Source: a virus
Taxonomy: Duplodnaviria > Heunggongvirae > Uroviricota > Caudoviricetes
DNA length: 64,000 nucleotides
Reading direction: 5' to 3' (one strand)
IMG/VR virus record: IMGVR_UViG_3300035034_002381
Span: 1-64,000 of that record
Shown: in pieces, positions 2,715 through 21,007 of the stretch
Layout of the letters: the number at the start of each line of letters is the position of its first letter
Numbering within the stretch: the first letter of the stretch is position 1
Position numbers and translations under genes: made by a program
The notes under the pieces: model-generated
Databases searched by the model: none
The model's input: the letters and a program-made list of their open reading frames with translations, nothing else
Told to the model about the DNA's origin: nothing

Positions 2715-3176
2715 ATGGTAGATTTCAACACAATCACAGAGAAAAACGAATCTGAAGCAAAAGCAAAATTCAGAGAAAATGGTACCGGAGTTAAAATGGG
2801 AACATTTGCTTCTGGTGACGAAAGCAAATGGGAAGATCTAATTAACACAGGTCTTTTCAGTAATCAAGCTATCAAAAACAGAATGCTTGACGTTGCACGC
2901 AGAATTAACACTATGTGTAATGACGAACTTTTAGGTAATCTTGACGTGGCTTTTACTGTTACTGATGCTCGTGATAATAAGGTGGAATTTACCTACATGG
3001 ATATTTATACTTTTTTACGAGCGGCATACCGTTACAGAAGTGAAACTAAGAATTATAGAGAAATGAAAGCTAGAAAAGCTGAACTTGAAAAATTCACTGA
3101 AGAAACTAAGACCGTAAAAGAAAAACGTGCTGAGGCACTCAAGGAACTTAAAGAACTTGAAAAGTCTCTTGCATAA
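2715..3176 (+). CDS. hypothetical protein with C-terminal coiled coil
   Basis: 153-aa ORF preceded by the promoter motif; no recognisable catalytic motif. Confidence 0.7.
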   Translation: MVDFNTITEKNESEAKAKFRENGTGVKMGTFASGDESKWEDLINTGLFSNQAIKNRMLDVARRINTMCNDELLGNLDVAFTVTDARDNKVEFTYMDIYTFLRAAYRYRSETKNYREMKARKAELEKFTEETKTVKEKRAEALKELKELEKSLA

Positions 3177-3334
3177 AAGTTTCTGTCTCTGGGAGACCTA
3201 ACACTGATGATGACAAGCGTCTTGAAAACCTATTTAATCCATAAACTTGGGAAGAAAATGAGAGTGAGTAACTCGAATGAATCGAATGTATGATTCAAAA
3301 GGTATTGGTAGGTTAATTCTTATCAATACCTCTA

Positions 3335-3428
3335 AAATTCTTCTTAGAATCCATAAAACTTAGCTCATTGGTTGGGCATTTGTATAAGAACAAAAGGAGC
3401 GGTTCAATTCCGTAGACTAGAAGAATTT
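3335..3428 (+). ncRNA. stem-closed tRNA-mimic RNA (Y-RNA/YrlA-like architecture), module 1
   Basis: 10-bp terminal helix aaattcttct/agaagaattt (3335-3344/3419-3428); encloses the CTTAGAATCCATAAAACT motif, D-arm-like gctc-attggtt-gggc, hairpin tttgt-ataaga-acaaa and T-arm-like gcgg-ttcaatt-ccgt. Confidence 0.4.
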
Positions 3429-3432
3429 AATT

Positions 3433-3556
3433 GCCGGGTTAGTGTAAGGGTCAACACACGTAAAGTAAACATAGTGAACTTTACGAATCACTTAGAATAA
3501 CTAACTATACAATCCATATGGAGGACGGATAACTGGTTCGAGTCCAGTGCCTGGCA
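3433..3556 (+). ncRNA. 124-nt tRNA-like RNA with a large insertion between anticodon-position hairpin and T-arm
   Basis: acceptor gccgggt/gcctggc, D gtgt-aagggtca-acac, 8-bp hairpin cgtaaagt/actttacg, 46-nt insert carrying CTTAGAATAACTAACT, T actgg-ttcgagt-ccagt. Confidence 0.4.
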
Positions 3557-3567
3557 CAAATTAAATT

Positions 3568-3620
3568 GCAGAGTGGTGTAGTGGCAGCACACGTAAACGC
3601 CGATTAGTGAAGCATTTACG
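3568..3620 (+). ncRNA. paralogous 5'-half tRNA-like fragment
   Basis: gcagagtggtgtagtggcagcacacgtaaa...tagtgaagcatttacg parallels the 5' half of 3433-3556 (D gtgt/acac, hairpin cgtaaa/tttacg); no T-arm follows. Confidence 0.3.
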
Positions 3621-3720
3621 TTACACTAAAAAATTGGCAAATCTCGTTCAAAAGAAATTTTCAAATGTAACAACAGAAATTGAAGATGTTGATGAATGGG
3701 TATATTTATATGTAAGAATT

Positions 3721-3752
3721 TAAAACTTTTTTCAAACTAAAGAATATAAAGA
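3721..3752 (+). promoter_or_regulatory. TAAAACTTT ... TATAAAG promoter-like motif driving the 3761-3894 RNA
   Basis: motif ends about 9 nt before the 18-bp terminal stem. Confidence 0.5.
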
Positions 3753-3760
3753 ACAATAAT

Positions 3761-3894
3761 ACCAATAAAAATTCGACTTAGAATACCTAAAACTAAAGTT
3801 TAAATTAGCTCATTGAGCATATTTTTTTTATAAATACGGTCTAGGTTAATCCCTAGAAATTCAAACGTTTAGTCGAATTTTTATTGGTTTTTTA
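3761..3894 (+). ncRNA. stem-closed tRNA-mimic RNA (Y-RNA/YrlA-like architecture), module 3
   Basis: perfect 18-bp terminal helix accaataaaaattcgact/agtcgaatttttattggt (3761-3778/3871-3888) followed by a T-run; encloses CTTAGAATACCTAAAACT, tagctcattgagca and T-arm-like tctagg-ttaatc-cctaga; has its own upstream promoter motif. Confidence 0.5.
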
Positions 3895-3900
3895 AAATAT

Positions 3901-3975
3901 TGCGGGGTGGACTGGAGTTGGATCCAGCTTGGTCTCATAAGCCAAATCACGGGAGTTCGAATCTCTCCCCCGCTA
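3901..3975 (+). tRNA. tRNA-Met(CAT) type, second initiator-like body
   Basis: acceptor tgcgggg/ccccgct with a T1.T72 mismatch, anticodon arm ttggt-ctCATaa-gccaa, T gggag-ttcgaat-ctctc. Confidence 0.75.
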
Positions 3976-4280
3976 CTTGTTAATAGGCATTTTATCAGTA
4001 ACACTGGAAGTTTTGGCCGAATAAATTAAAAAGTAAAATGTGTGTTCGTGTGTTAGTAAAGAGCTGCACGAATTAAATTTAATAAGTTCTGACTAGTGGT
4101 TTCGGTTTAATAGGGAAAGATACTTACCACTGAAAAAACTAAAATGTATACCCTGTAGATTTTCAATATTTATCTAACTAAATATTGCGTGTTAGAAAGT
4201 TCTAGATTAACTGTGCACAGGTTATTTAGTTCTTATAAATTTTAGAATGCACTTAACAATGTAGCGTTAATCTAAAAAAT

Positions 4281-4354
4281 GCCTCGGTAACTCAGTTGGT
4301 TAGAGTATCTGCTCGACATGCAGAAAGCCACAGGTTCGAATCCTGTTCGGGGTA
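4281..4354 (+). tRNA. tRNA-Val(GAC) with C at position 33
   Basis: acceptor gcctcgg/tcggggt (G.U rich), D actc-agttggtta-gagt, anticodon arm tctgc-tcGACat-gcaga, T acagg-ttcgaat-cctgt. Confidence 0.7.
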
Positions 4355-4384
4355 CTTATTCTACTTAGAATACTTAAACTTTAT

Positions 4385-4419
4385 AAATTGGTTCGATTCC
4401 AATTTTTATTGGTCTTTTT
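4385..4419 (+). terminator. T-arm-like hairpin terminator
   Basis: aaattgg-ttcgatt-ccaattt followed by ttattggtcttttt; its 3' flank repeats the aatttttattggt of the module 3 stem. Confidence 0.45.
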
Positions 4420-4528
4420 CTGTCAATTAAGTATCAAATAAATTTTTAATATATTGATTGATTTGAATATATTAAACAACCTCTCTTAGAAAATCTAAGT
4501 TAGAGAAGTTAAATCATCAAAAACAAAA

Positions 4529-6472
4529 ATGATGTCTACAAAAACAAAATCTTTATCAAAAGAAAGAGTTGCCTCTGTTTCAGGAGATAAACCAAGACTC
4601 CCAAGAACTCTTGAAACTCTTCAAGGTTTAAGAACAGCTCAAGGATTATCTGACGCGCAAATTGCGAATATGTTAGATAACGCATTATCAGAAACTTCAA
4701 GTAACCATATTATATATGTTCTTGAAAGATTAATGTTACACATTGGTGATGTGAGTCGACAACACAATATGTTGAAAGAATTGGGAATTAATTCTAAATC
4801 TGGTGGCGCACAAGAACGTGGGGTATTCCGATCTATTTTACGATGGTGGGAAAAAACTTTGCCTGAATCATTTGCAGAAAATCTTCGAGTATTCGCTGAA
4901 TTCTCAGTTTTGGAAAACTTGATGTTTTATGAACTTAAAACTGAAAGAGCAACTGGAAAATTAATTGGAAAGGAAATTTTGTTTCCTATGCCAAGTAAAG
5001 TACATGAATTTCTAGCGAACGAAATTCACAAAAATAGAAATGTGAATCTTATTGCTAAGCATTTACCAAAATATGACACTGGTAAAAGTCGAACCACTAA
5101 GAAAACCATGCATATTAAAGACGGTAAGGATAGTTTCATGTGGAAACTTCCTGAAGGTAAAGCTTGGGTTAAATTAAATGGTGATCTAATCGAAGGAGAA
5201 TCTGTTAAGATTACTCAAGGTGATGTAGTTTCATATCCTCGTGATAAATCTTCACATGTTTTAGAAAAACAAAGATTCGTTAATTCTTGGATTTCTAGTT
5301 TCTGTAAAGTTATGGGATGGTCAATTACTGATTATAACAATTTCCGTAAACAACAAAACACACCGGAACAAAAATTCTCAAGTAAACGTGTTTTAAACAT
5401 GCCGAAATCAGATTTCTGGAAAATGCTTGATGGTTTGACTTCTGGTCAAAGATACAGAGTTTCTAGAATGTTAGATTTCAATGCGGAAAAGTGGGGAGAA
5501 TTACCGAAATGGTATGATTTGTGGGAAGGTAACCAAGAAAAAGTAGCCGATAAACTTCGACAAGCTGCAGCTGATGGTGATACTGAAGCAACAGAAAAAT
5601 TGAAGAAAGAATTCAAGGTTAAATCTACTGGAAAAAACACTGTTGATTTATTGAAAGATATGTTAACAGGTAATCATGACGATAGATTCATTAACAACAC
5701 TTATCAATCTATGATTGAGAATATGGATATTGTTGCGAATGTTTTTCCAGTAATTGATGGTTCCGCATCTATGGATTGCCAAATTGGTGGAGGATGGAGT
5801 CCTCGAAGTTCTCGAAGTTCTACGGATAGACAACTTTCAAATAGAGCTGTCGCATATGCTATGGCAATTGCATTTTCTACTAGAAACCCAGTACCAGGAT
5901 TCCGTAACACGTTCGGATGGTTCTCCAGAAACTTTCACATTGTTGGAAAATCTAAGTATGTGAACAATGCACCTAATCAATACGTTGATTCTGGAAGTTA
6001 TACTAAAAAGGTTAATGAGTTCAATGTTTTATCTGAAACTAATACTTTCACTGAAAACTACTCAAACTTGAGAAAATCTGATCCAGGAGAAATATCATCT
6101 ACAAATATGGGTTCTGTGATTACTCACTTCACAAATTTAGTAGAAACTGGTAAATTTCATGTTGAGGATCTTCCATCTGCGTTACTTTTTATCACAGATA
6201 ATGAAAACAACACAGGAATTAGTCCGAAGGAAGCGTTGGCAATAGCTAACAAAATTGGATGGTCTCCATTGGTTATTTTCTGGGGGTTAACTAAAGTTCC
6301 AAGCAACATGATGAATCAGTATAAGGGAATTCCTAACTGCTTACTTGTTGGAGGATTTAATGAATCAGTACTTTCACAAGTACTTAGGGGTATTAAATCT
6401 GGTTCAGTTGATCCAGAGGATGAAATCTGGAGTATTGTCGAAAATAAAAGATATGCAGTAATTACTGAGTAA
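4529..6472 (+). CDS. Ro60/TROVE-like (or DUF2828-like) protein with C-terminal vWA domain
   Basis: 647-aa ORF; MIDAS-type DGSASM, SSTNMG, LLFITDNENNTG and VGGFNESVLSQV resemble, by eye, the Ro60 vWA motifs DVSASM, GGTDCS, TDNETFAG and CGFDTGALDV; helical N-terminal two thirds. Confidence 0.55.
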   Translation: MMSTKTKSLSKERVASVSGDKPRLPRTLETLQGLRTAQGLSDAQIANMLDNALSETSSNHIIYVLERLMLHIGDVSRQHNMLKELGINSKSGGAQERGVFRSILRWWEKTLPESFAENLRVFAEFSVLENLMFYELKTERATGKLIGKEILFPMPSKVHEFLANEIHKNRNVNLIAKHLPKYDTGKSRTTKKTMHIKDGKDSFMWKLPEGKAWVKLNGDLIEGESVKITQGDVVSYPRDKSSHVLEKQRFVNSWISSFCKVMGWSITDYNNFRKQQNTPEQKFSSKRVLNMPKSDFWKMLDGLTSGQRYRVSRMLDFNAEKWGELPKWYDLWEGNQEKVADKLRQAAADGDTEATEKLKKEFKVKSTGKNTVDLLKDMLTGNHDDRFINNTYQSMIENMDIVANVFPVIDGSASMDCQIGGGWSPRSSRSSTDRQLSNRAVAYAMAIAFSTRNPVPGFRNTFGWFSRNFHIVGKSKYVNNAPNQYVDSGSYTKKVNEFNVLSETNTFTENYSNLRKSDPGEISSTNMGSVITHFTNLVETGKFHVEDLPSALLFITDNENNTGISPKEALAIANKIGWSPLVIFWGLTKVPSNMMNQYKGIPNCLLVGGFNESVLSQVLRGIKSGSVDPEDEIWSIVENKRYAVITE

Positions 6473-6492
6473 TCTTAATTTTCAAATTACTA

Positions 6493-6522
6493 AGGAGAGG
6501 CATTTTTGCCTCTCCTTTTTTT
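6493..6522 (+). terminator. intrinsic terminator
   Basis: aggagaggc-attttt-gcctctcct followed by a T-run. Confidence 0.8.
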
Positions 6523-6527
6523 ATGTT

Positions 6528-6556
6528 TAAAACTATATCAATCTTAGATATATAAT
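6528..6556 (+). promoter_or_regulatory. TAAAACT ... CTTAGATATATAAT promoter-like motif
   Basis: near-identical 40-nt block recurs at 22859-22900. Confidence 0.55.
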
Positions 6557-6576
6557 ACAAATAAATTAAATTAAAT

Positions 6577-7140
6577 ATGAAAAATGTAAAAAACTTTCGT
6601 GAGTTTCTGAACGAGAATCGAGTCGAAAAGAGATTAGCTAGTCTGGACGCAGAATATACTATTGACAAAAAGTTGTGTAAACAATTAATGGATGTGGGAG
6701 AGCAAATAGATTATATATACAATAATTTAGATTTGCCACACTCTGACTTTGCCACTTCTAATTTTATACCACCCGAAATTGAAAACGATGATAAAACAGC
6801 GAGTGATTGGGTAGAATCTGAGAAGGCTCTTATAAGAAGTGAACTAAAATCTAAAGAATCTGAATATAAAAAAATTCTTAGAAAAATACAATCTAAACAT
6901 TCGTATATTAATGATGTAATTGAATATCTTAATCAAACTAATTTAGGTTTTACTTTAGAAAATACATTTATTGATAAAATAAACAGAAGAAATGATATCA
7001 TAAATACTGTTGTAATAAAAAGTTGGTATGGGTATGCTAAAGCTTCAAGAAAAGAATTAGAAAGATATAAAATAACACCTGAGCAACTTGCAGGTACTAT
7101 ATTATCAATGCGAGCAGTCGCTGATGAACTAACATATTAG
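6577..7140 (+). CDS. hypothetical protein with CTS-like N-terminal leader (MKNVKNFREFLNE)
   Basis: 187-aa ORF; leader resembles the T4 capsid targeting sequence MKTYQEFIAE. Confidence 0.7.
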   Translation: MKNVKNFREFLNENRVEKRLASLDAEYTIDKKLCKQLMDVGEQIDYIYNNLDLPHSDFATSNFIPPEIENDDKTASDWVESEKALIRSELKSKESEYKKILRKIQSKHSYINDVIEYLNQTNLGFTLENTFIDKINRRNDIINTVVIKSWYGYAKASRKELERYKITPEQLAGTILSMRAVADELTY

Positions 7141-7224
7141 TAATAAAGTACTAAGTGATATTTGTAAACAATTAAAAAATAAGAATATCGAATGTGGCTT
7201 TGATGATGCATTCGACCCTAGTTA

Positions 7225-7425
7225 ATGGAAAGTTTTAAAAGTATACTCGAATCTAAAGATTCTGATAAACTCGCAAAAGAGATCAATAATGCAATCATTA
7301 AAATTGATGATTCTATGTCATACAAAGATTTTGCAGCTGCAGTTATCAAAATAATGAAAGAAGAATACGGAGAACACCTATATACAGAATTCTTAGGAAT
7401 TTTACAAAAAAATCTAAAGAAATGA
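7225..7425 (+). CDS. small hypothetical protein (MESFKSILESK, weak CTS-like)
   Basis: 66-aa ORF; ATGA overlap with the next start. Confidence 0.6.
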   Translation: MESFKSILESKDSDKLAKEINNAIIKIDDSMSYKDFAAAVIKIMKEEYGEHLYTEFLGILQKNLKK

Positions 7426-7790
7426 AGACTTTTAAAGAATTTATAAACGAATCGGAATATATGGTGGTGAATGGAAAGAAAACGCCGAGATAACAGCTAG
7501 ACAATTATCTTCTGGGTTGGTTATTAGCATTGAACCTACAAAAATAAAAGTATTAGTTAGTACATCATCAGAACTAGATATCGATGTTTTAATGTCTAAC
7601 AATGATAAAATTGAATATAGAAGTTATAGACGACTCGCCGTATACAAAACCAGGATCTACACAAAGTTTTATTAGAATAAAACTGAATGGAAAAACTATA
7701 TATGAAGATAAAGGAGCTAATTATGCCGACGCACCAAGTGACGAGATTATTAGAGCTTATGAAGAGGTGTATAAAATTAGATCCAAATAG
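7422..7790 (+). pseudogene. frame-split CTS-family gene (MKTFKEFINESE...)
   Basis: the reading frame passes from frame 0 (7422-7493) to the -1 frame (open 7436 to about 7670) and back to frame 0 (7602-7790); only the first segment has a start codon. Confidence 0.35.
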
Positions 7791-7839
7791 GGAATACGTT
7801 TGCTTCTATACACAATAATTCAAAATATAAGACTTGAAA

Positions 7840-8004
7840 ATGAAAAGATTTTTTAGAGTTGCTAGTATTACATCATTAATTGTTCTGTGTCTATTCACAT
7901 TTTTAATGCACGCGTTTCCATGGGAATGGTCAACTGATATTAGATTATATTGCATATTCACAATGGTTTCTTCATCGATTGTCGCGTATTTCGTAAGCCG
8001 TTAA
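7840..8004 (+). CDS. small membrane protein
   Basis: 54-aa ORF below the track cutoff; two hydrophobic helices; followed by a strong terminator. Confidence 0.5.
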   Translation: MKRFFRVASITSLIVLCLFTFLMHAFPWEWSTDIRLYCIFTMVSSSIVAYFVSR

Positions 8005-8026
8005 TAAAATTTAACATATAGATAAC

Positions 8027-8056
8027 AGTGGGACTTTTATAGTCCCACTTTTTTTG
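8027..8056 (+). terminator. intrinsic terminator
   Basis: agtgggact-tttat-agtcccact followed by a T-run. Confidence 0.8.
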
Positions 8057-8091
8057 TTTATATTTATACTGAATTTAAAAACTCAAAATAA

Positions 8092-8265
8092 ATGTCAAGA
8101 GAAAATATGGATTATATGGGCGATGCAGTCTACGCAGAATACACGGGATGGTCAATTGATTTACGAGTCAATGATCATCGGAATCCTGTCGCTGTCGTTT
8201 TAGAAGAACTAGTCTTACAAAATTTAGTCGATTTTGCTAGACGAAAAGGTCTTAAAATCAAATAA
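8092..8265 (+). CDS. small hypothetical protein
   Basis: 57-aa ORF MSRENMDYMGDAVYAEY..., immediately upstream of 8274. Confidence 0.45.
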   Translation: MSRENMDYMGDAVYAEYTGWSIDLRVNDHRNPVAVVLEELVLQNLVDFARRKGLKIK

Positions 8266-8273
8266 ATTATGAA

Positions 8274-8636
8274 ATGAAAGTAATTTATTCTGCAGTTTTT
8301 GTTGATAAGTCTACCCTTATAAAAAAATTTAAACCGGTATTTGATAACATTCATGCTCATCACATGACTATTGAATTTAGACCAGAATCAACAGATAATC
8401 TGGATATTGACAAAAATTACAAATTGAAAATTATCGGTAGATTAATTACAGACAAAGTTGATGTTCTTCTTGTTGATGATGGAGGCATCAGTAAAAATGA
8501 ATTCCCACACATTACAATTTCTATAGCTGATGGTGTTAGGCCTTTCGAAAGTAATACCGAAATCAAAAATAATTATTCCAAAATAACTAAACTTCGTGGA
8601 GAAATAACAGGCAAAATCGGAGTTTTCACCGCATAA
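8274..8636 (+). CDS. 2H phosphoesterase superfamily protein (LigT/CPDase/Acb1-like)
   Basis: two H-x-T-x motifs (HHMTIEF and PHITISI) about 60 aa apart in a 120-aa protein. Confidence 0.6.
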   Translation: MKVIYSAVFVDKSTLIKKFKPVFDNIHAHHMTIEFRPESTDNLDIDKNYKLKIIGRLITDKVDVLLVDDGGISKNEFPHITISIADGVRPFESNTEIKNNYSKITKLRGEITGKIGVFTA

Positions 8637-8645
8637 ATCTTAACT

Positions 8646-8870
8646 ATGAAAAAGGTAACATTTCTAATTTTAATATTGTTCAACATTAATTTATGGGCAC
8701 AAGAACAACCAGATACAGTTTATGTTCTGAAAAGTTTTACAGTCAAAGGTGTGAGAGCTGATCCTAAAACACCGATCACACAAAAAACAATAGACAAGAA
8801 ATTTATTGAACGCAATTATTTTGGTCAAGAAATTCCTATTCTTTTAAATACCACACCATCAATAAATTAG
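8646..8870 (+). pseudogene. N-terminal fragment of a TonB-dependent receptor (signal peptide plus start of plug domain)
   Basis: MKKVTFLILILFNINLWAQ signal, then VKGVRADPKTPITQKTI...GQEIPILLNTTPSIN; stops after 74 aa, whereas full receptors are 700+ aa. Confidence 0.55.
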
Positions 8871-8949
8871 GTATGGAAAAATCTCAAGACTTTGAACCAA
8901 CCGAACCAGAAGAAATGTATTAAAATAATTGAAAATAACTCTTCCAGAT

Positions 8950-8982
8950 TAAAACTTTTTGATTACTTTTGTATATATACTG
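8950..8982 (+). promoter_or_regulatory. TAAAACTTT ... TATATATA promoter-like motif
   Basis: upstream of a 29-codon ORF and tRNA island 2. Confidence 0.45.
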
Positions 8983-9118
8983 TATATTTAAACAAACAAT
9001 AATGAAAACACAAATCAACATAACTACCAGTTATTCTTTAAGAAGCTTATGTACGTCGCTGAGACTATATGAGACAGGGTATCTATGTTGATCAAACATA
9101 TTTTTGATTACAAACTAA

Positions 9119-9150
9119 ACCCTGTCTATTTAATTAGACAGGGTTTTTTT
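9119..9150 (+). terminator. intrinsic terminator
   Basis: accctgtcta-tttaat-tagacagggt followed by a T7 run. Confidence 0.8.
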
Positions 9151-9154
9151 ATTT

Positions 9155-9245
9155 GGAAGATAAAGCAGCTGCATTGGAGCGGCGACTAGCCTTGAAAACT
9201 AGGTCTCGGAGAAATCTGGGTGGGGTTCGAGTCCTCTGTCTTCCT
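9155..9245 (+). tRNA. tRNA-Ser(TGA)
   Basis: acceptor ggaagat/gtcttcc, anticodon loop ctTGAaa, long variable arm, T gggg-ttcgagt-cctc. Confidence 0.75.
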
Positions 9246-9277
9246 CAAAGTTTTAGTTCATTGACATATTAATATTA

Positions 9278-9361
9278 GAGGATGCGGTAATGGTGGTTAT
9301 TACAGTATCTTGGAAAGGTACCGATCGTTTATTCGGTCAGGGTTCGACTCCCTCATCCTCT
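9278..9361 (+). tRNA. tRNA-Ser(GGA)
   Basis: acceptor gaggatg/catcctc, anticodon arm gtatc-ttGGAaa-ggtac, variable arm gatcg-tttatt-cggtc, T aggg-ttcgact-ccct; ends uncertain by 1 nt. Confidence 0.75.
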
Positions 9362-9365
9362 GCTA

Positions 9366-9488
9366 TGTTCTTCTTAGAATAACTAATTTATGTAAATGTG
9401 AGTTCGAATCTCATCAAATGCTTTTAGCATCTGTAGCCAAATGGTTAGGCAATATACTTGAAATATATAACAAACGATTAGAAGAACA
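9366..9488 (+). ncRNA. circularly permuted tRNA-like element closed by a 9-bp leader-trailer helix
   Basis: order: helix 5' strand tgttcttct, CTTAGAATAACTAATTT, T-arm gtgag-ttcgaat-ctcat, capped acceptor hairpin caaatgc-tttta-gcatctg, ta, D-arm gcc-aaatggtta-ggc, anticodon arm atata-ctTGAaa-tatat, helix 3' strand agaagaaca. Confidence 0.5.
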
Positions 9489-9492
9489 ACAT

Positions 9493-9565
9493 GCTTCCAT
9501 AGTATAAAGGTTCATTATTCCTGTTTTGTAATCAGGCGATATCGGTTCGATTCCGATTGGGAGCT
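9493..9565 (+). tRNA. tRNA-Thr(TGT)
   Basis: acceptor gcttcca/tgggagc, anticodon loop ttTGTaa (31-39 T.T), T atcgg-ttcgatt-ccgat. Confidence 0.75.
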
Positions 9566-11598: not shown

Positions 11599-12508
11599 TA
11601 GAATAATCAAAGAAATTCATTCTTCTTTTTATTCAATGGATCAAGAAACTGATACATATCTTCAACGCCAAATTCAAGCTGCGTATGACGAATCTATCAA
11701 AGGCTCTTTAGAGAAGACTATCAAAAAATATGGTTTTAATAATGCCAAAAACTCTGACATTTTTGATAAAGCATTACTTGAAAGTCGGGAAGAATTAAAT
11801 GATGTCTTAAACGAATGTTCAGTGACATATCCAGGTAAAAAGTTTATTACTGATGAACAAATAGCACAGCTTTGTATCAAATATAATTTATTACTAACAA
11901 CACCAGATAGATTTATTGGTGAAATACCAGAACGTAATATCCAAGAGTTGAACGACTTTAATCCAAAAGGTAGCGAAAAAAAGGCGTTTTTTGATCCCAA
12001 AGTTTTTTATAAATTATATAACTTTATAAGAGAATATGAAGAGAAGCATTATTATATGAATAAAAATCTAAAAAAATCTATTGCAATGATTTATCGATCA
12101 TTTATGAATCATAGTAACATGGATTCAATACTTTTTCCAGATAATAATAAATATATTGTTCATGGTGTCAATGAAGATAAATCAATCACCACAACTGAAT
12201 TAGGTATTCAAACAGCAAAGAAAATATCTGAAGAATTATCTAAGAAAGAAAGAAATTCTGTACCTATTTTACCGTTGTTTTCACAAACTATGATAGCAGC
12301 GACATCTGATTTACTTGATATTCCTAAACTAGGATTGATCAAGAATAAAAGAAATGAACTTGTTTTAGGTCTTAATTCAAAACAATTTAAAGAAAATTTT
12401 CTACCTGATCCAATTGTACTACATAAAGTAAAACGTGGTGCTATTATTATAACTGCTTGGGGCTTGGAATCTCAAGATGAACTAGTATTCAATCCTATTA
12501 TTAATTGA
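11573..12508 (+). CDS. hypothetical protein
   Basis: 311-aa ORF; no motif recognised. Confidence 0.75.
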   Translation: METQAQESNRIIKEIHSSFYSMDQETDTYLQRQIQAAYDESIKGSLEKTIKKYGFNNAKNSDIFDKALLESREELNDVLNECSVTYPGKKFITDEQIAQLCIKYNLLLTTPDRFIGEIPERNIQELNDFNPKGSEKKAFFDPKVFYKLYNFIREYEEKHYYMNKNLKKSIAMIYRSFMNHSNMDSILFPDNNKYIVHGVNEDKSITTTELGIQTAKKISEELSKKERNSVPILPLFSQTMIAATSDLLDIPKLGLIKNKRNELVLGLNSKQFKENFLPDPIVLHKVKRGAIIITAWGLESQDELVFNPIIN

Positions 12509-16355: not shown

Positions 16356-16688
16356 ATGAAAAAATGGGATGATATAAGAAACTCGATGTCTGGAAATTCA
16401 GATATTATAGAAGTTTGGAAGAAAGTTGTAGATAAACACCAAAATGAAGAAATTGAGTGGATTGAAAACCTTAGAAAACAAGGTTATAAAGCATCTCATC
16501 CTAATGACGGTTGGGTAGACAGAGAAAATAACAAAATACATCTGGTTTATCCACAATTCAACGATGGAATTGGTGTGAATGATAAACTAATGATTGGTAG
16601 TCCAAACAGTGATAATAATCGACCTGTGCGAATAACCGGCATTGATGAATTTGCAATGACATATTATTTATTTGAAGACTTAGAATAA
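16356..16688 (+). CDS. hypothetical protein
   Basis: 110-aa ORF followed by a terminator. Confidence 0.65.
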   Translation: MKKWDDIRNSMSGNSDIIEVWKKVVDKHQNEEIEWIENLRKQGYKASHPNDGWVDRENNKIHLVYPQFNDGIGVNDKLMIGSPNSDNNRPVRITGIDEFAMTYYLFEDLE

Positions 16689-16712
16689 CCATAACATATT
16701 ATCCTTTTCTTA

Positions 16713-16747
16713 ATGACCAAGATTCTAAGAATCTTGGTCATTTTTTA
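16713..16747 (+). terminator. intrinsic terminator
   Basis: 13-bp stem atgaccaagattc/gaatcttggtcat with loop taa and a T-run. Confidence 0.85.
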
Positions 16748-19213: not shown

Positions 19214-21007
19214 ATGAAACTTTTAAACGAACAAAAGATCTATGATGAGTGGGCTCCTATGCTAGAGGAGGAAACTTCAATCAAAGATTCTTCAAAATTG
19301 GGATGGATGACTAAATATTGTCACTACCATTCATTAAATGAAGCATTCACTGCACCTGCAGCTGGATTGCTTAACACGCCAGGTATGGGTAATGTAACTC
19401 CTGCTGGAGCTGCTGCCGGTGGTGCTAATGCATTCTACGGAAGTACTACTACTGGTTCAGGAGATAAATTCCCTTCATTATTGCCACTATCTATTCAGGT
19501 AGCTGCAAGAACTGTAGGATTTGATATCGTTCCTGTTATTCCTATGAACGGACCTTCGGGGGTTCTTACATACATGGATTATGTCTATGCTGGTGGAAAA
19601 GGAGCATTCGGAGCACCTCCAGGTGCTGCAGGTGCTGCAAACCCAGGTCTTAACGCTTACGCTGACAAGCCGTTAGTATTCAAAATCCAACTTGTTGGAG
19701 ATGAGAAAACTGCTTTCGATGCTGCTGCTGCGGGTGATGAATTCTTATTTGCTTCTGGTGCACTTGCTGCAACTGGAAACACACTACGTGTTGCTAAAAT
19801 CGGTCCTTCTAGAATCGACGGTCACTCTATTTTTAGAGTAATTGGAGAATCTGGTGATGCTGATGCGACTGGCGGTGCAGCTGCTGCTGTAGCGACAACT
19901 CTTACATCGCCACAATCTATCACATTGGCTTCTGTATTTACAGGAACTGCTGCGATGATTACTGCGGCTGGTGCTTTAGTTGATGCTGCTGATTCAGTAG
20001 TTAATCGTCCAGAACTTGTTAAAGCTCTTGAAGATCACGTTCAAGGTTTTGCTGGTGCAGGTCCAAACGATGATGAAGCATGGTCAGGAAATGCGACTGA
20101 TGGTACTGTATCTTACGAACCAATGCGAAGAGGTGTAGGTGAAGAGCAGTACTTCAGAACTATGGGACTTCAAGCTTTCACGAAATTCATTGAAGCTGAA
20201 ACTTTCCAAGTTGCTGCTAATGTTACTACAGAACAAATTCAAGATTTACAACGTCAGTATGGAATCGATGTGATTGCAATGATCGAGAACTCATTAGTAA
20301 ATGATATCTCTCAATCTATTAACAAGCACATTCTTTCTAGAGCTTTCGCTCTTGGATGGGGTGCAAACCTTACATTCAGAGATGTTGAAGGTGCAAACCT
20401 TAACCTTGAATTGGTAAACACTGGAACTGGTGTTACTGCAACTCCTGCTTACATTGATAAGACTGGAGTAGGTACTGCATCTGTATATCCTGCTTTCCAA
20501 GAATTTGCTGGAGCTGCTGCTGCTGCATCATTGGAAAACCAAGCAACATTCCAACGAAGAGTATATTCTAAAGTACTTGCTGCTGGAAACGTTGTTACTC
20601 AAAGAGGACGTAGAGGACCTGCAAACTTCATTGTTACTAACCTTCAGTTAGCGACAGCGTTGCAAGATTCTGCACAATTCTCTTGGGCACCAATGGCAAA
20701 CACCATTAACCAAAACAACGGTTCGCTTTACCCAGTGGGTACTGTAGCCGGAATGACTGTTTATGTAGATCCTAACATGGGATTCTCTGATAACAGAATT
20801 CTTGTTGGACGTAAAGGTGCTGATGAAGAACCAGGACTTAAATTCATGCCTTACTTAATGGCTGAATCAATCCAAACAATTGCTGAAGGTACAATGGCTC
20901 CGAAAGTTGCCGTAAAATCACGTTATGCTTTAGTTGAAGCTGGACACCACCCAGAAACAATGTACTTTACTATTGCAGTAAATGTACCTGTAGGTGGATT
21001 AGTATAA
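19214..21007 (+). CDS. major capsid protein (T4 gp23-like)
   Basis: 597-aa Ala/Gly-rich ORF; VGFDIVPVIPMNGPSGVL, EQIQDLQRQYGIDV, GRRGPANFIVTN and MTVYVDPNM line up by eye with gp23 blocks; strong terminator downstream. Confidence 0.8.
   Translation: MKLLNEQKIYDEWAPMLEEETSIKDSSKLGWMTKYCHYHSLNEAFTAPAAGLLNTPGMGNVTPAGAAAGGANAFYGSTTTGSGDKFPSLLPLSIQVAARTVGFDIVPVIPMNGPSGVLTYMDYVYAGGKGAFGAPPGAAGAANPGLNAYADKPLVFKIQLVGDEKTAFDAAAAGDEFLFASGALAATGNTLRVAKIGPSRIDGHSIFRVIGESGDADATGGAAAAVATTLTSPQSITLASVFTGTAAMITAAGALVDAADSVVNRPELVKALEDHVQGFAGAGPNDDEAWSGNATDGTVSYEPMRRGVGEEQYFRTMGLQAFTKFIEAETFQVAANVTTEQIQDLQRQYGIDVIAMIENSLVNDISQSINKHILSRAFALGWGANLTFRDVEGANLNLELVNTGTGVTATPAYIDKTGVGTASVYPAFQEFAGAAAAASLENQATFQRRVYSKVLAAGNVVTQRGRRGPANFIVTNLQLATALQDSAQFSWAPMANTINQNNGSLYPVGTVAGMTVYVDPNMGFSDNRILVGRKGADEEPGLKFMPYLMAESIQTIAEGTMAPKVAVKSRYALVEAGHHPETMYFTIAVNVPVGGLV

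Follow-up and report, generated by a model that had tools for sequence, protein, structure and literature searches.

Several small RNAs in the tRNA clusters of a tailed phage carry the same short sequence box, and the question raised by this locus is what the box is for and what reads it. The DNA is a stretch of 64,000 nt (positions 1 to 64,000 of IMG/VR virus record IMGVR_UViG_3300035034_002381, Caudoviricetes; hereafter, the window), and a gene for a 647-aa Ro-like protein lies beside the small RNAs. The first-pass annotation of the window had proposed four roles for the box, choosing none of them: a binding site for the Ro-like protein, a processing site, an internal promoter, and a mimic of the Leu(UAG) anticodon loop. 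Computational analysis shows that the box is a short RNA signal, CUUAGAAUA, far more frequent than expected by chance, and that it forms part of a helix-plus-box module placed on at least four different RNA bodies. Of the four roles, binding of the Ro-like protein is best supported, by the Ro60 fold predicted for this protein, by the linkage of box and gene down to 25% protein identity, by the concerted change of the box between clades, and by box modules in the start region of the gene itself; the other three are disfavoured or poorly supported.

A short box at the end of a helix

The five core copies were found where they had been reported (Table 1), in the form CTTAGAAT(A), on the plus strand only and in the small-RNA clusters only. 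An 18-nt pattern allowing up to three mismatches yields eight matches, a count not reached in any of 100 shuffles, compared to 0.95 expected. Moreover, the 9-mer CTTAGAATA occurs in the window five times on the plus strand and never on the minus strand, with about 0.9 occurrences per strand estimated from composition. Two further exact 8-mers, at 16679 and 35885, are situated beyond the RNA clusters, and neither has a partner helix. The former (CTTAGAATAA) overlaps the stop codon of the open reading frame (ORF) 16356–16688; within 16679–16740 it is followed by a terminator-like hairpin, with the palindrome AGATTCTAAGAATCT as its loop region, has no module geometry, and is probably coincidental.

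The box had been described as 17 nt long and present in or next to every odd small RNA. Its recurrence holds, its length does not: the conserved core comprises 8–9 nt followed by an A-rich tail, and the terminal TAAAACT is exact in just two of the five window copies. The same is seen in 62 distinct copies from the window and from related loci (denoted by L and a number; most were collected through the protein, at 38–99% identity, and L045 alone independently of it), where A, A and then an A-rich run come after the eight nucleotides, and TAAAACT is not conserved. Nor is the box present in every odd RNA, the truncated remnant of RNA at 3568–3627 being an example. Among the more distant variants reported earlier, CTTAGAAA at 4485, in the leader hairpin of the Ro-like gene, can be counted as a true relative, since other lineages have leader copies as well. 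Two others proved unrelated: the one at 974 has mismatches in the core and its own, different hairpin, and CTTAGATATATAA at 6528 and 22870 belongs to promoter-like blocks (TAAAACT...TATAWA) having only CTTAGA in common with the box.

The geometry of the module is constant. The CU of the box ends one strand of a helix, the partner strand begins with AG, a U faces a U, and then follow single-stranded UAGAAUA and the A-rich tail. The partner strand lies either 40–110 nt downstream, yielding a terminal helix, or just upstream, yielding a local hairpin. In the copies at 3343, 3777 and 9373 the box directly follows the 5' strand of the terminal helix, as had been noticed, and these helices are 10, 18 and 9 bp long. 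The CU anchors a helix of 8 bp or more in 23 of 63 boxes, compared to 6.7% of 1560 control CT sites; the 51 modules have 35 distinct helix ends, and U precedes the partner AG in 45 of them. Since in L143 CU/AG is replaced by compensatory CC/GG, the CU is paired, and the single-stranded box proper is UAGAAUA.

Covariation gives independent support for the helix. For 13 cloverleaf-type box RNAs (RNA A of the window and 12 homologues), aligned without building the alignment around the terminal helix P1, RNAalifold yields P1 together with the D, anticodon and T arms, 15 of 22 pairs being compensatory. Pairing is observed in 94.7% of cells, compared to 72% in shuffles and approximately 40% with slid partners, and the covariation score is 0.63 versus 0.20. 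The covarying P1 helices form a terminal stem between the 5' and 3' ends, as in Y RNAs.

The same module sits on at least four different RNA bodies. Class I is an RNA of approximately 68 nt with two inner hairpins and has no copy in the window. In class II (RNA A and the degenerate RNA C) the helix takes the place of the acceptor stem around the D, anticodon and T arms. Class III RNAs (RNA B and the truncated remnant) are tRNA-like with a normal acceptor stem, the hairpin and box being inserted after the D arm. Class P RNAs (RNA E) are circularly permuted, in the order helix strand, box, T arm, acceptor-like hairpin, UA, D arm, anticodon-like arm, helix strand. A fifth form, the box followed by a T-arm-like hairpin, is located just upstream of the Ro-like gene (RNA D).

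Table 1. Box copies, box RNAs and the Ro-like gene in the window.
Feature	Position	Strand	Description
Box copy	3343	+	CTTAGAATCC
Box copy	3491	+	CTTAGAATAA
Box copy	3777	+	CTTAGAATAC
Box copy	4364	+	CTTAGAATAC
Box copy	9373	+	CTTAGAATAA
RNA A (class II)	3335–3428	+	P1 3335–3344/3419–3428, box 3343–3350; D, anticodon-like and T arms inside, without a normal acceptor stem
RNA B (class III)	3433–3556	+	7-bp acceptor stem 3433–3439/3549–3555, D arm, T arm
Class III remnant	3568–3627	+	Truncated; full RNA with box in the near-identical L008 (4700–5058)
RNA C	3761–3888	+	18-bp terminal helix 3761–3778/3871–3888, box 3777–3784; degenerate D-like and T-like hairpins inside
RNA D	4364–4405	+	Box 4364–4371, 9 nt past tRNA-Val; T-arm-like hairpin 4385–4405
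Leader element of the Ro-like gene	4481–4505	+	Variant box CTTAGAAA at 4485–4492 within a small helix CUCU/AGAG
Ro-like gene	4529–6472	+	647 aa: helical TROVE-like part, inserted beta domain, vWA domain with a DxSxS MIDAS motif
RNA E (class P)	9366–9488	+	P1 9366–9374/9480–9488; box 9373–9380, T arm, acceptor-like hairpin, UA, D arm, anticodon-like arm

In RNA B the hairpin and box (3491–3498) follow the D arm and precede a short anticodon-like arm, UCC/GGA; orthologues are present in L045 (at 3604) and L008. Relative to L008, approximately 271 nt are missing from the window at the class III remnant; a whole class III RNA is lost with them, and the missing stretch begins directly after the box CT. 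RNA C has a fold z-score of –6.1 and a promoter-like block upstream (3721–3750). For RNA D no clear closing helix or 3' end is seen in the window copy; in L020 and L023, comparable RNAs with the box and a T arm lie shortly before the gene.

RNA E is located between tRNA-Ser (ending at 9363) and tRNA-Thr (starting at 9493). Class P RNAs were parsed by hand, because MAFFT alignments of classes I and P aligned the inner hairpins badly; in the six class P RNAs (RNA E and five homologues) 165 of 170 proposed pairs are standard, and every helix differs in sequence. The acceptor-like hairpin of the permuted RNAs (9415–9438 in the window; 4242 in L045, 694 in L035, 106 in L031) has an A-C-type mismatch at the third pair from the base in four of the six, the sequence of the helix otherwise varying freely.

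Neither ARAGORN nor the Rfam tRNA model calls any of the five box RNAs, and each lacks, or has displaced, at least one element of the canonical tRNA cloverleaf, such as its 7-bp acceptor stem or its 7-nt anticodon loop on a 5-bp stem. With Rfam 15, at both gathering and permissive thresholds, no family other than tRNA reaches E ≤ 10 with a credible score over these RNAs. They are tightly packed among tRNAs, with spacers of 2–5 nt, and since they are thus already bounded by tRNAs, tRNA-processing enzymes (RNase P, RNase Z) could release them.

The neighbouring protein and the concerted change of the box

In the loci fetched via the protein (188 kb), the box occurs 47 times on the plus strand, that is, the strand of the gene, and once on the minus strand, in the tRNA and small-RNA region upstream of the gene. 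As these loci had been chosen by the protein, IMG/VR was also searched with a pattern comprising the box and T arm alone. This search yielded L045, along with one known contig and chance matches. L045 is a 155-kb contig with 11 boxes, no canonical tRNA and the same recognizable RNA classes, and a 25%-identical homologue of the 647-aa protein is encoded directly downstream of the 11 boxes. The box and the Ro-like gene thus remain linked down to 25% protein identity, and this gene is the only one common to all loci. A scan of IMG/VR with the class I pattern produced 79 loci, nearly all of them chance matches in coding DNA, the real ones being contigs already known and L096. At the other extreme, L008 is 99.7% identical to the window at the DNA level, and indels between the two gain or lose whole box RNAs. 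In addition, L008 contains a further box RNA at 1966 and a 38-nt insert at window position 4426, and lacks window positions 3184–3261.

In divergent loci the architecture is retained and the box is altered, with all copies in a genome agreeing across RNA classes. Deeply diverged relatives have CUUACAAU, CUUAUAAA or CUUAGUAA in place of CUUAGAAUA. The core is GAAU in the window clade, L045, L141 and L142 (box CUUAGAAU), CAAU in L132, L133 and L137 (CUUACAAU in four, five and six copies, respectively), UAAA in L130 (CUUAUAAAAUCUAA, four copies), and GUAA in L135 (CUUAGUAA, four copies). Orthologous RNA classes bear the local variant of the box, the RNAs of the L133 and L137 type being CUUACAAUA RNAs. 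A box that is uniform across unrelated RNA bodies therefore argues for one trans-acting reader per genome, and not for a self-contained structural role.

The product of the Ro-like gene is predicted to have a Ro60 fold, with a helical repeat and a vWA domain with MIDAS, the metal-ion-dependent adhesion site. Its AlphaFold model (pLDDT, the predicted local distance difference test score, of 82.8) resembles Ro60 along the whole length, and the top eight Foldseek matches are all Ro60, with E from 4e-6 to 6e-4. The DxSxS MIDAS motif is invariant among the family members compared, and an N-terminal surface, HIGDVSRxHN / R97-R101-W106, is conserved. The protein also matches PHROG 850, annotated as "RNA-binding protein" (E 8e-16). 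A first scan of viral proteins with the single 647-aa sequence produced no relatives; a family profile finds 1401, the distant ones of approximately 500 aa (E 1e-14 to 1e-20) carrying both DUF2828 (PF11443) and DUF7788 (PF25043). A sequence search of PDB with the family profile yielded no match, and the literature search found no functional paper on DUF2828 and none mentioning the box. Comparison of proteins from GAAU-box and CAAU-box loci shows two columns, and only two, that are fixed differently, residues 524 and 565 (S524G, S565N), adjoining the MIDAS residues of the vWA domain; with nine sequences, this sample is too small to be trusted.

The module is also observed at the start of the gene itself. 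Most lineages have the box or a variant CUUAGAAA, with its own small helix, 44–118 nt before the ATG. In the window the leader hairpin has a fold z-score of –2.8 and ends 24 nt before the ATG. Leader copies with CTTAGAAA are found in L001, L003, L009, L013, L018 and L024, and variant leader copies occur in at least seven lineages. In L141, L142 and L031 the box is at –14/–15 and the partner strand is within the reading frame, at +13, +33 and +36, so that the start codon is enclosed; L032 and L036 have an enclosing module of a similar layout. The enclosing helix is the minimum-energy fold in L142 and L031. By analogy, this layout is that of an autoregulatory operator, and it is the strongest hint that this very protein reads the box.

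Candidate readers of the box

We suggest that the module serves as the recognition handle of the Ro60-fold/vWA protein on tRNA mimics resembling Y RNAs, and also as an autoregulatory operator, and assign to this reading a probability of roughly 0.55. The phage would graft a portable module (a helix ending in C-G and U-A, a U facing a U, UAGAAUA and the A-rich tail) onto several RNA bodies, namely a two-hairpin RNA, a cloverleaf without the acceptor stem, a tRNA-like RNA holding the module as an internal hairpin, and a permuted tRNA-like RNA in the YrlA order. The module would dock the protein encoded beside the RNAs, playing the part of the CGAA-containing stem in Y RNAs, and the particles so formed would expose surfaces resembling tRNA to other factors. 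Through a weaker or variant copy in the leader of the gene, sometimes around its start codon, excess protein would be able to repress its own translation.

Several observations weigh against this reading. The protein as reader, its autoregulation and the part played downstream by the particle are all three what we infer, and the link between box and protein comes from synteny, analogy and co-variation. Most loci were gathered via the protein, and hence adjacency is partly built in, L045 being the only independent case. L131 lacks a leader copy, and the one box observed there stands 6 kb away from the gene. Beyond GAA, the box has no resemblance to the motifs bound by Ro60, GGUCCGA in animals and GNCGAAN0-1G or CGAA in bacteria and phages. 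A Pfam scan of the 647-aa protein at E ≤ 10 yields nothing save a chance match to DUF5344, with TROVE, as well as DUF2828 and DUF7788, unmatched. The helix enclosing the start codon in L141 is not the minimum-energy fold. GAAU is found on both major branches of the protein tree, and the box type does not cleanly follow the tree. Finally, if a host factor reads the box, host switching could equally drive its concerted change.

A tentative extension of the recognition-handle reading, which we hold to be possible, though less likely than not, treats the box as a clade-specific address code read by an unrecognized Ro60-fold/vWA branch of the DUF2828 superfamily. By this code, tRNA mimics, permuted ones among them, would be loaded in arrays into a particle by which huge phages might intercept host tRNA-directed enzymes or defence nucleases, or tether enzymes of RNA repair or decay, and the same code in the start region would set the protein level.

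If the protein does read the box, it would give the first functional handle on a large unannotated family (the 1401 relatives, with DUF2828/DUF7788 in its far members), and the principle of Ro60 and Y RNAs would reach huge phages with a different, evolvable recognition code. In phage tRNA clusters, many "odd" or pseudo-tRNA-like genes would be explained as coherent modular tRNA mimics, for which the helix ending in CU, followed by UA-N-N-A, provides a search key, and the natural box variants would be ready-made material for specificity swaps.

The rival explanation that survives best, though we consider it unlikely, is that a different trans-acting factor, encoded by the host or elsewhere in the phage, reads the module, for example an endoribonuclease maturing or turning over polycistronic transcripts of tRNAs and small RNAs, the Ro-like gene merely residing in the tRNA region. 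It agrees with the fact that boxes often begin about 10 nt past a tRNA 3' end, with the 6-kb distance between gene and box in L131, with HNH nuclease genes inside several RNA clusters, and with a concerted change that could follow host switches. An A/U-rich, single-stranded site adjoining a helix, such as this box, suits many RNases. Still, the Ro-like gene is the only one shared by all loci, L045 has its 11 box RNAs with no canonical tRNA, and the wrapping of the start codon of the Ro-like gene in a box module is left unexplained. A processing site, also among the roles proposed earlier, is disfavoured more specifically: the box is internal to RNAs closed by a helix, midway along the molecule in class III, so that cleavage there would destroy the RNAs, while those bounded by tRNAs could already be released by RNase P and RNase Z.

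It is less probable again that the box is purely structural, for example a T-loop-like or other tertiary motif stabilizing the junction at the foot of the helix, with no dedicated protein reader. T-loops have the sequence UUCGAAU and, loosely, the pentamer U-(U/G)-N-R-A; UUAGA fits the latter, and UUAGAAU is one position off the former. The juxtaposition of the two U is conserved as well. However, an intramolecular motif need not change in step across unrelated RNA bodies of one genome, finding it in the start region of a particular gene's mRNA would be unexpected, and no conserved partner element was found within the RNAs.

Mimicry of an anticodon loop or codon (CU-UAG-AA, CU-UAC-AA, CU-UAU-AA, i.e., the UAN type), by which the box would be a decoy or specifier for tRNA-directed enzymes or tRNA anticodons, generalizes the Leu(UAG) proposal and is very improbable. 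In its favour, it is the third base of a UAN triplet that varies in the box, being G, C or U; in other respects the RNAs do mimic tRNAs; and one relative encodes a tRNA with anticodon CUA. On the contrary, the box is never the loop of a stem-closed 7-nt hairpin, its CU being paired with AG, as confirmed by the compensatory change in L143; CUUAGUAA of L135 has U at the would-be purine position 37; and the anticodon loop of the real tRNA-Leu(UAG) in the window is CUUAGGA.

Least credible is the box as a DNA promoter element (TAGAAT as the –10 hexamer, or an initiator) of each small RNA gene, the internal promoter of the first-pass annotation: against the strict strand bias, the single mismatch between TAGAAT and TATAAT, an A/T-rich hexamer 4–5 nt upstream of many copies, and one consensus promoter match that uses TAGAAT, though on the minus strand, stand the sequence directly upstream of the box, which must be transcribed because it is the 5' strand of covarying RNA helices (the class III acceptor 5' strand being about 60 nt upstream and some boxes mid-way along a tRNA-like molecule), the lack of any conserved –35 element, a sigma-70-type promoter scan that is not above shuffles and has no plus-strand match on any box, and a promoter-like block of the phage itself upstream of RNA C (TAAAACTTT-N12–14-TATAWA), which would put the box about 20 nt into the transcript.

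Four other candidates were rejected. A kink-turn would have GA opposite on the partner strand, and none is found; the stop of a tag like that of transfer-messenger RNA (UUA GAA UAA) is not conserved; for pairing with a phage-encoded complement, the reverse complement of the box occurs just once in 188 kb; and a local 7-nt loop would have a single possible closing pair.

Phage setting and comparison with known systems

The window is AT-rich (32% G+C) and belongs to a T4-type phage, with a Gp23-family major capsid protein (19214–21007) and a prohead protease. Its closest capsid relatives are those of the Lak megaphages of Prevotella, at approximately 40% identity, and this placement comes from the capsid only. 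Among GenBank phages there is no DNA match to the locus and no relative of the 647-aa protein. All genes of the window are on the plus strand, and there are three tRNA clusters. Between tRNA-Met and tRNA-Tyr there is a lone T-arm minihelix (303–348); a Ser(UGA)-like gene at approximately 9160–9252 is missed by both ARAGORN and Rfam, and 9277–9363 scores best as tRNA-Sec, below the threshold. In a relative, L002, ARAGORN reports a tRNA-Pyl with anticodon CUA (12009–12081), i.e., an amber suppressor, which hints at stop-codon recoding in part of the phage group.

The block TAAAACTTT-N12–14-TATAWA, which is probably the phage's own promoter type, recurs at 1137, 2659, 3721, 6528, 8950, 10984, 21070, 22870 and 43984, upstream of genes and of RNA C. 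The blocks at 6528 and 22870 are near-identical over approximately 40 nt, and each follows a terminator-like hairpin.

Immediately 5' of the RNA cluster, 2715–3176 encodes a 153-aa protein with no known function, kept in 17 of the related loci and missing from others (L004–L007 and L045). The 120-aa ORF 8274–8636 has two H-x-T/S motifs (HHMTIEF and HITIS) and a weak match (E 0.0025) to fungal tRNA ligase, in its cyclic phosphodiesterase domain; its product may be a 2H phosphoesterase, which would suit an RNA-repair setting. In relatives, genes near the Ro-like gene (L130 7909–9249; L131 10071–12108; L133 2959–3531; L136 7939–8733) encode an AAA ATPase, immediately downstream, calcineurin-like phosphoesterases and an RlaP-type nucleotidyltransferase, a set reminiscent of RNA repair and of vWA–AAA partnerships. 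HNH endonuclease genes are found in or beside the box clusters of the divergent clades, in L045 (9013–9594, minus strand), L133 (2287–2883), L135 (439–999), L137 (94–660) and L142 (3163–3681); they may be homing endonucleases and could aid the gain and loss of RNA genes.

Parts of the system have known parallels. Circularly permuted tRNA genes exist in Cyanidioschyzon merolae, and the tRNA cluster of phage T4 yields the stable species 1 and 2 RNAs. As in the former, the 3' half of the tRNA-like sequence in class P precedes the 5' half, but there is no sign of maturation into working tRNAs, no bulge-helix-bulge junction is seen, and the closing helix with the box is conserved as such. As with the latter, the box RNAs are small RNAs within a phage tRNA cluster, releasable by tRNA-processing enzymes. 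Operators that mimic the RNA target of the regulating protein are known for ribosomal proteins, threonyl-tRNA synthetase, T4 RegA and gp32. The phage modules resemble them in placing a slightly deviant recognition element (CUUAGAAA) in the translation start region of the presumed binding protein; unlike operators covering the ATG, the element in the window ends upstream of it, and repression is what we propose here. As to DUF2828 and DUF7788, these domains are borne by distant relatives of the protein and are unmatched in the window protein itself, and in L138, the one canonical DUF2828 locus inspected, tRNA-like genes are located upstream with no clear box seen.

The closest parallel is Ro60 with its Y RNAs. 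In Y RNAs the 5' and 3' ends pair into a stem, and the motif bound by Ro60 lies on or beside the 5' strand, being GNCGAAN0-1G in bacteria (PMC4201824). YrlA further has a tRNA-like domain, arranged as V, T, acceptor-like stem, D, and upstream of rsr there are several Y RNAs (Chen et al. 2014, PMC4201824). In Thermus phage phiLo, Ro60 binds two Yrl RNAs with CGAA in a bulge beside the 5'–3' stem (PMC12135203).

Similarly to bacterial Ro60 (Rsr) with YrlA and YrlB, several small RNAs are located just upstream of a Ro60-fold gene, and similarly to bacterial Y RNAs, they have paired 5' and 3' ends, a short conserved motif after the 5' strand, and a modular design. The order T arm, acceptor-like hairpin, D arm of YrlA is reproduced in RNA E and its five homologues, the other box RNAs being arranged otherwise; unlike YrlA, the permuted phage RNAs retain a full anticodon-like arm, and the stem leaves from the position of the variable loop. 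The motif at the equivalent place is UAGAAUA and not GNCGAAN0-1G, that is, CUUAGAAUA or its variants CUUACAAU, CUUAUAAA and CUUAGUAA, which share only GAA or xAA with it, and no Rfam family matches. Moreover, the module is also carried by non-permuted cloverleaves, by RNAs in which it is an internal hairpin, and by RNAs that are not tRNA-like. Compared to Rsr, the phage protein has an extra beta domain and no Pfam match to TROVE. While phiLo combines a canonical TROVE protein with CGAA RNAs, here we observe a DUF2828-related outlier, up to 11 RNAs per locus and a motif varying between clades. By the usual tests, that is, the motif, the covariance model and the TROVE sequence, the phage system falls outside the family, and yet, by analogy, it appears to work as Ro60 does with its Y RNAs.

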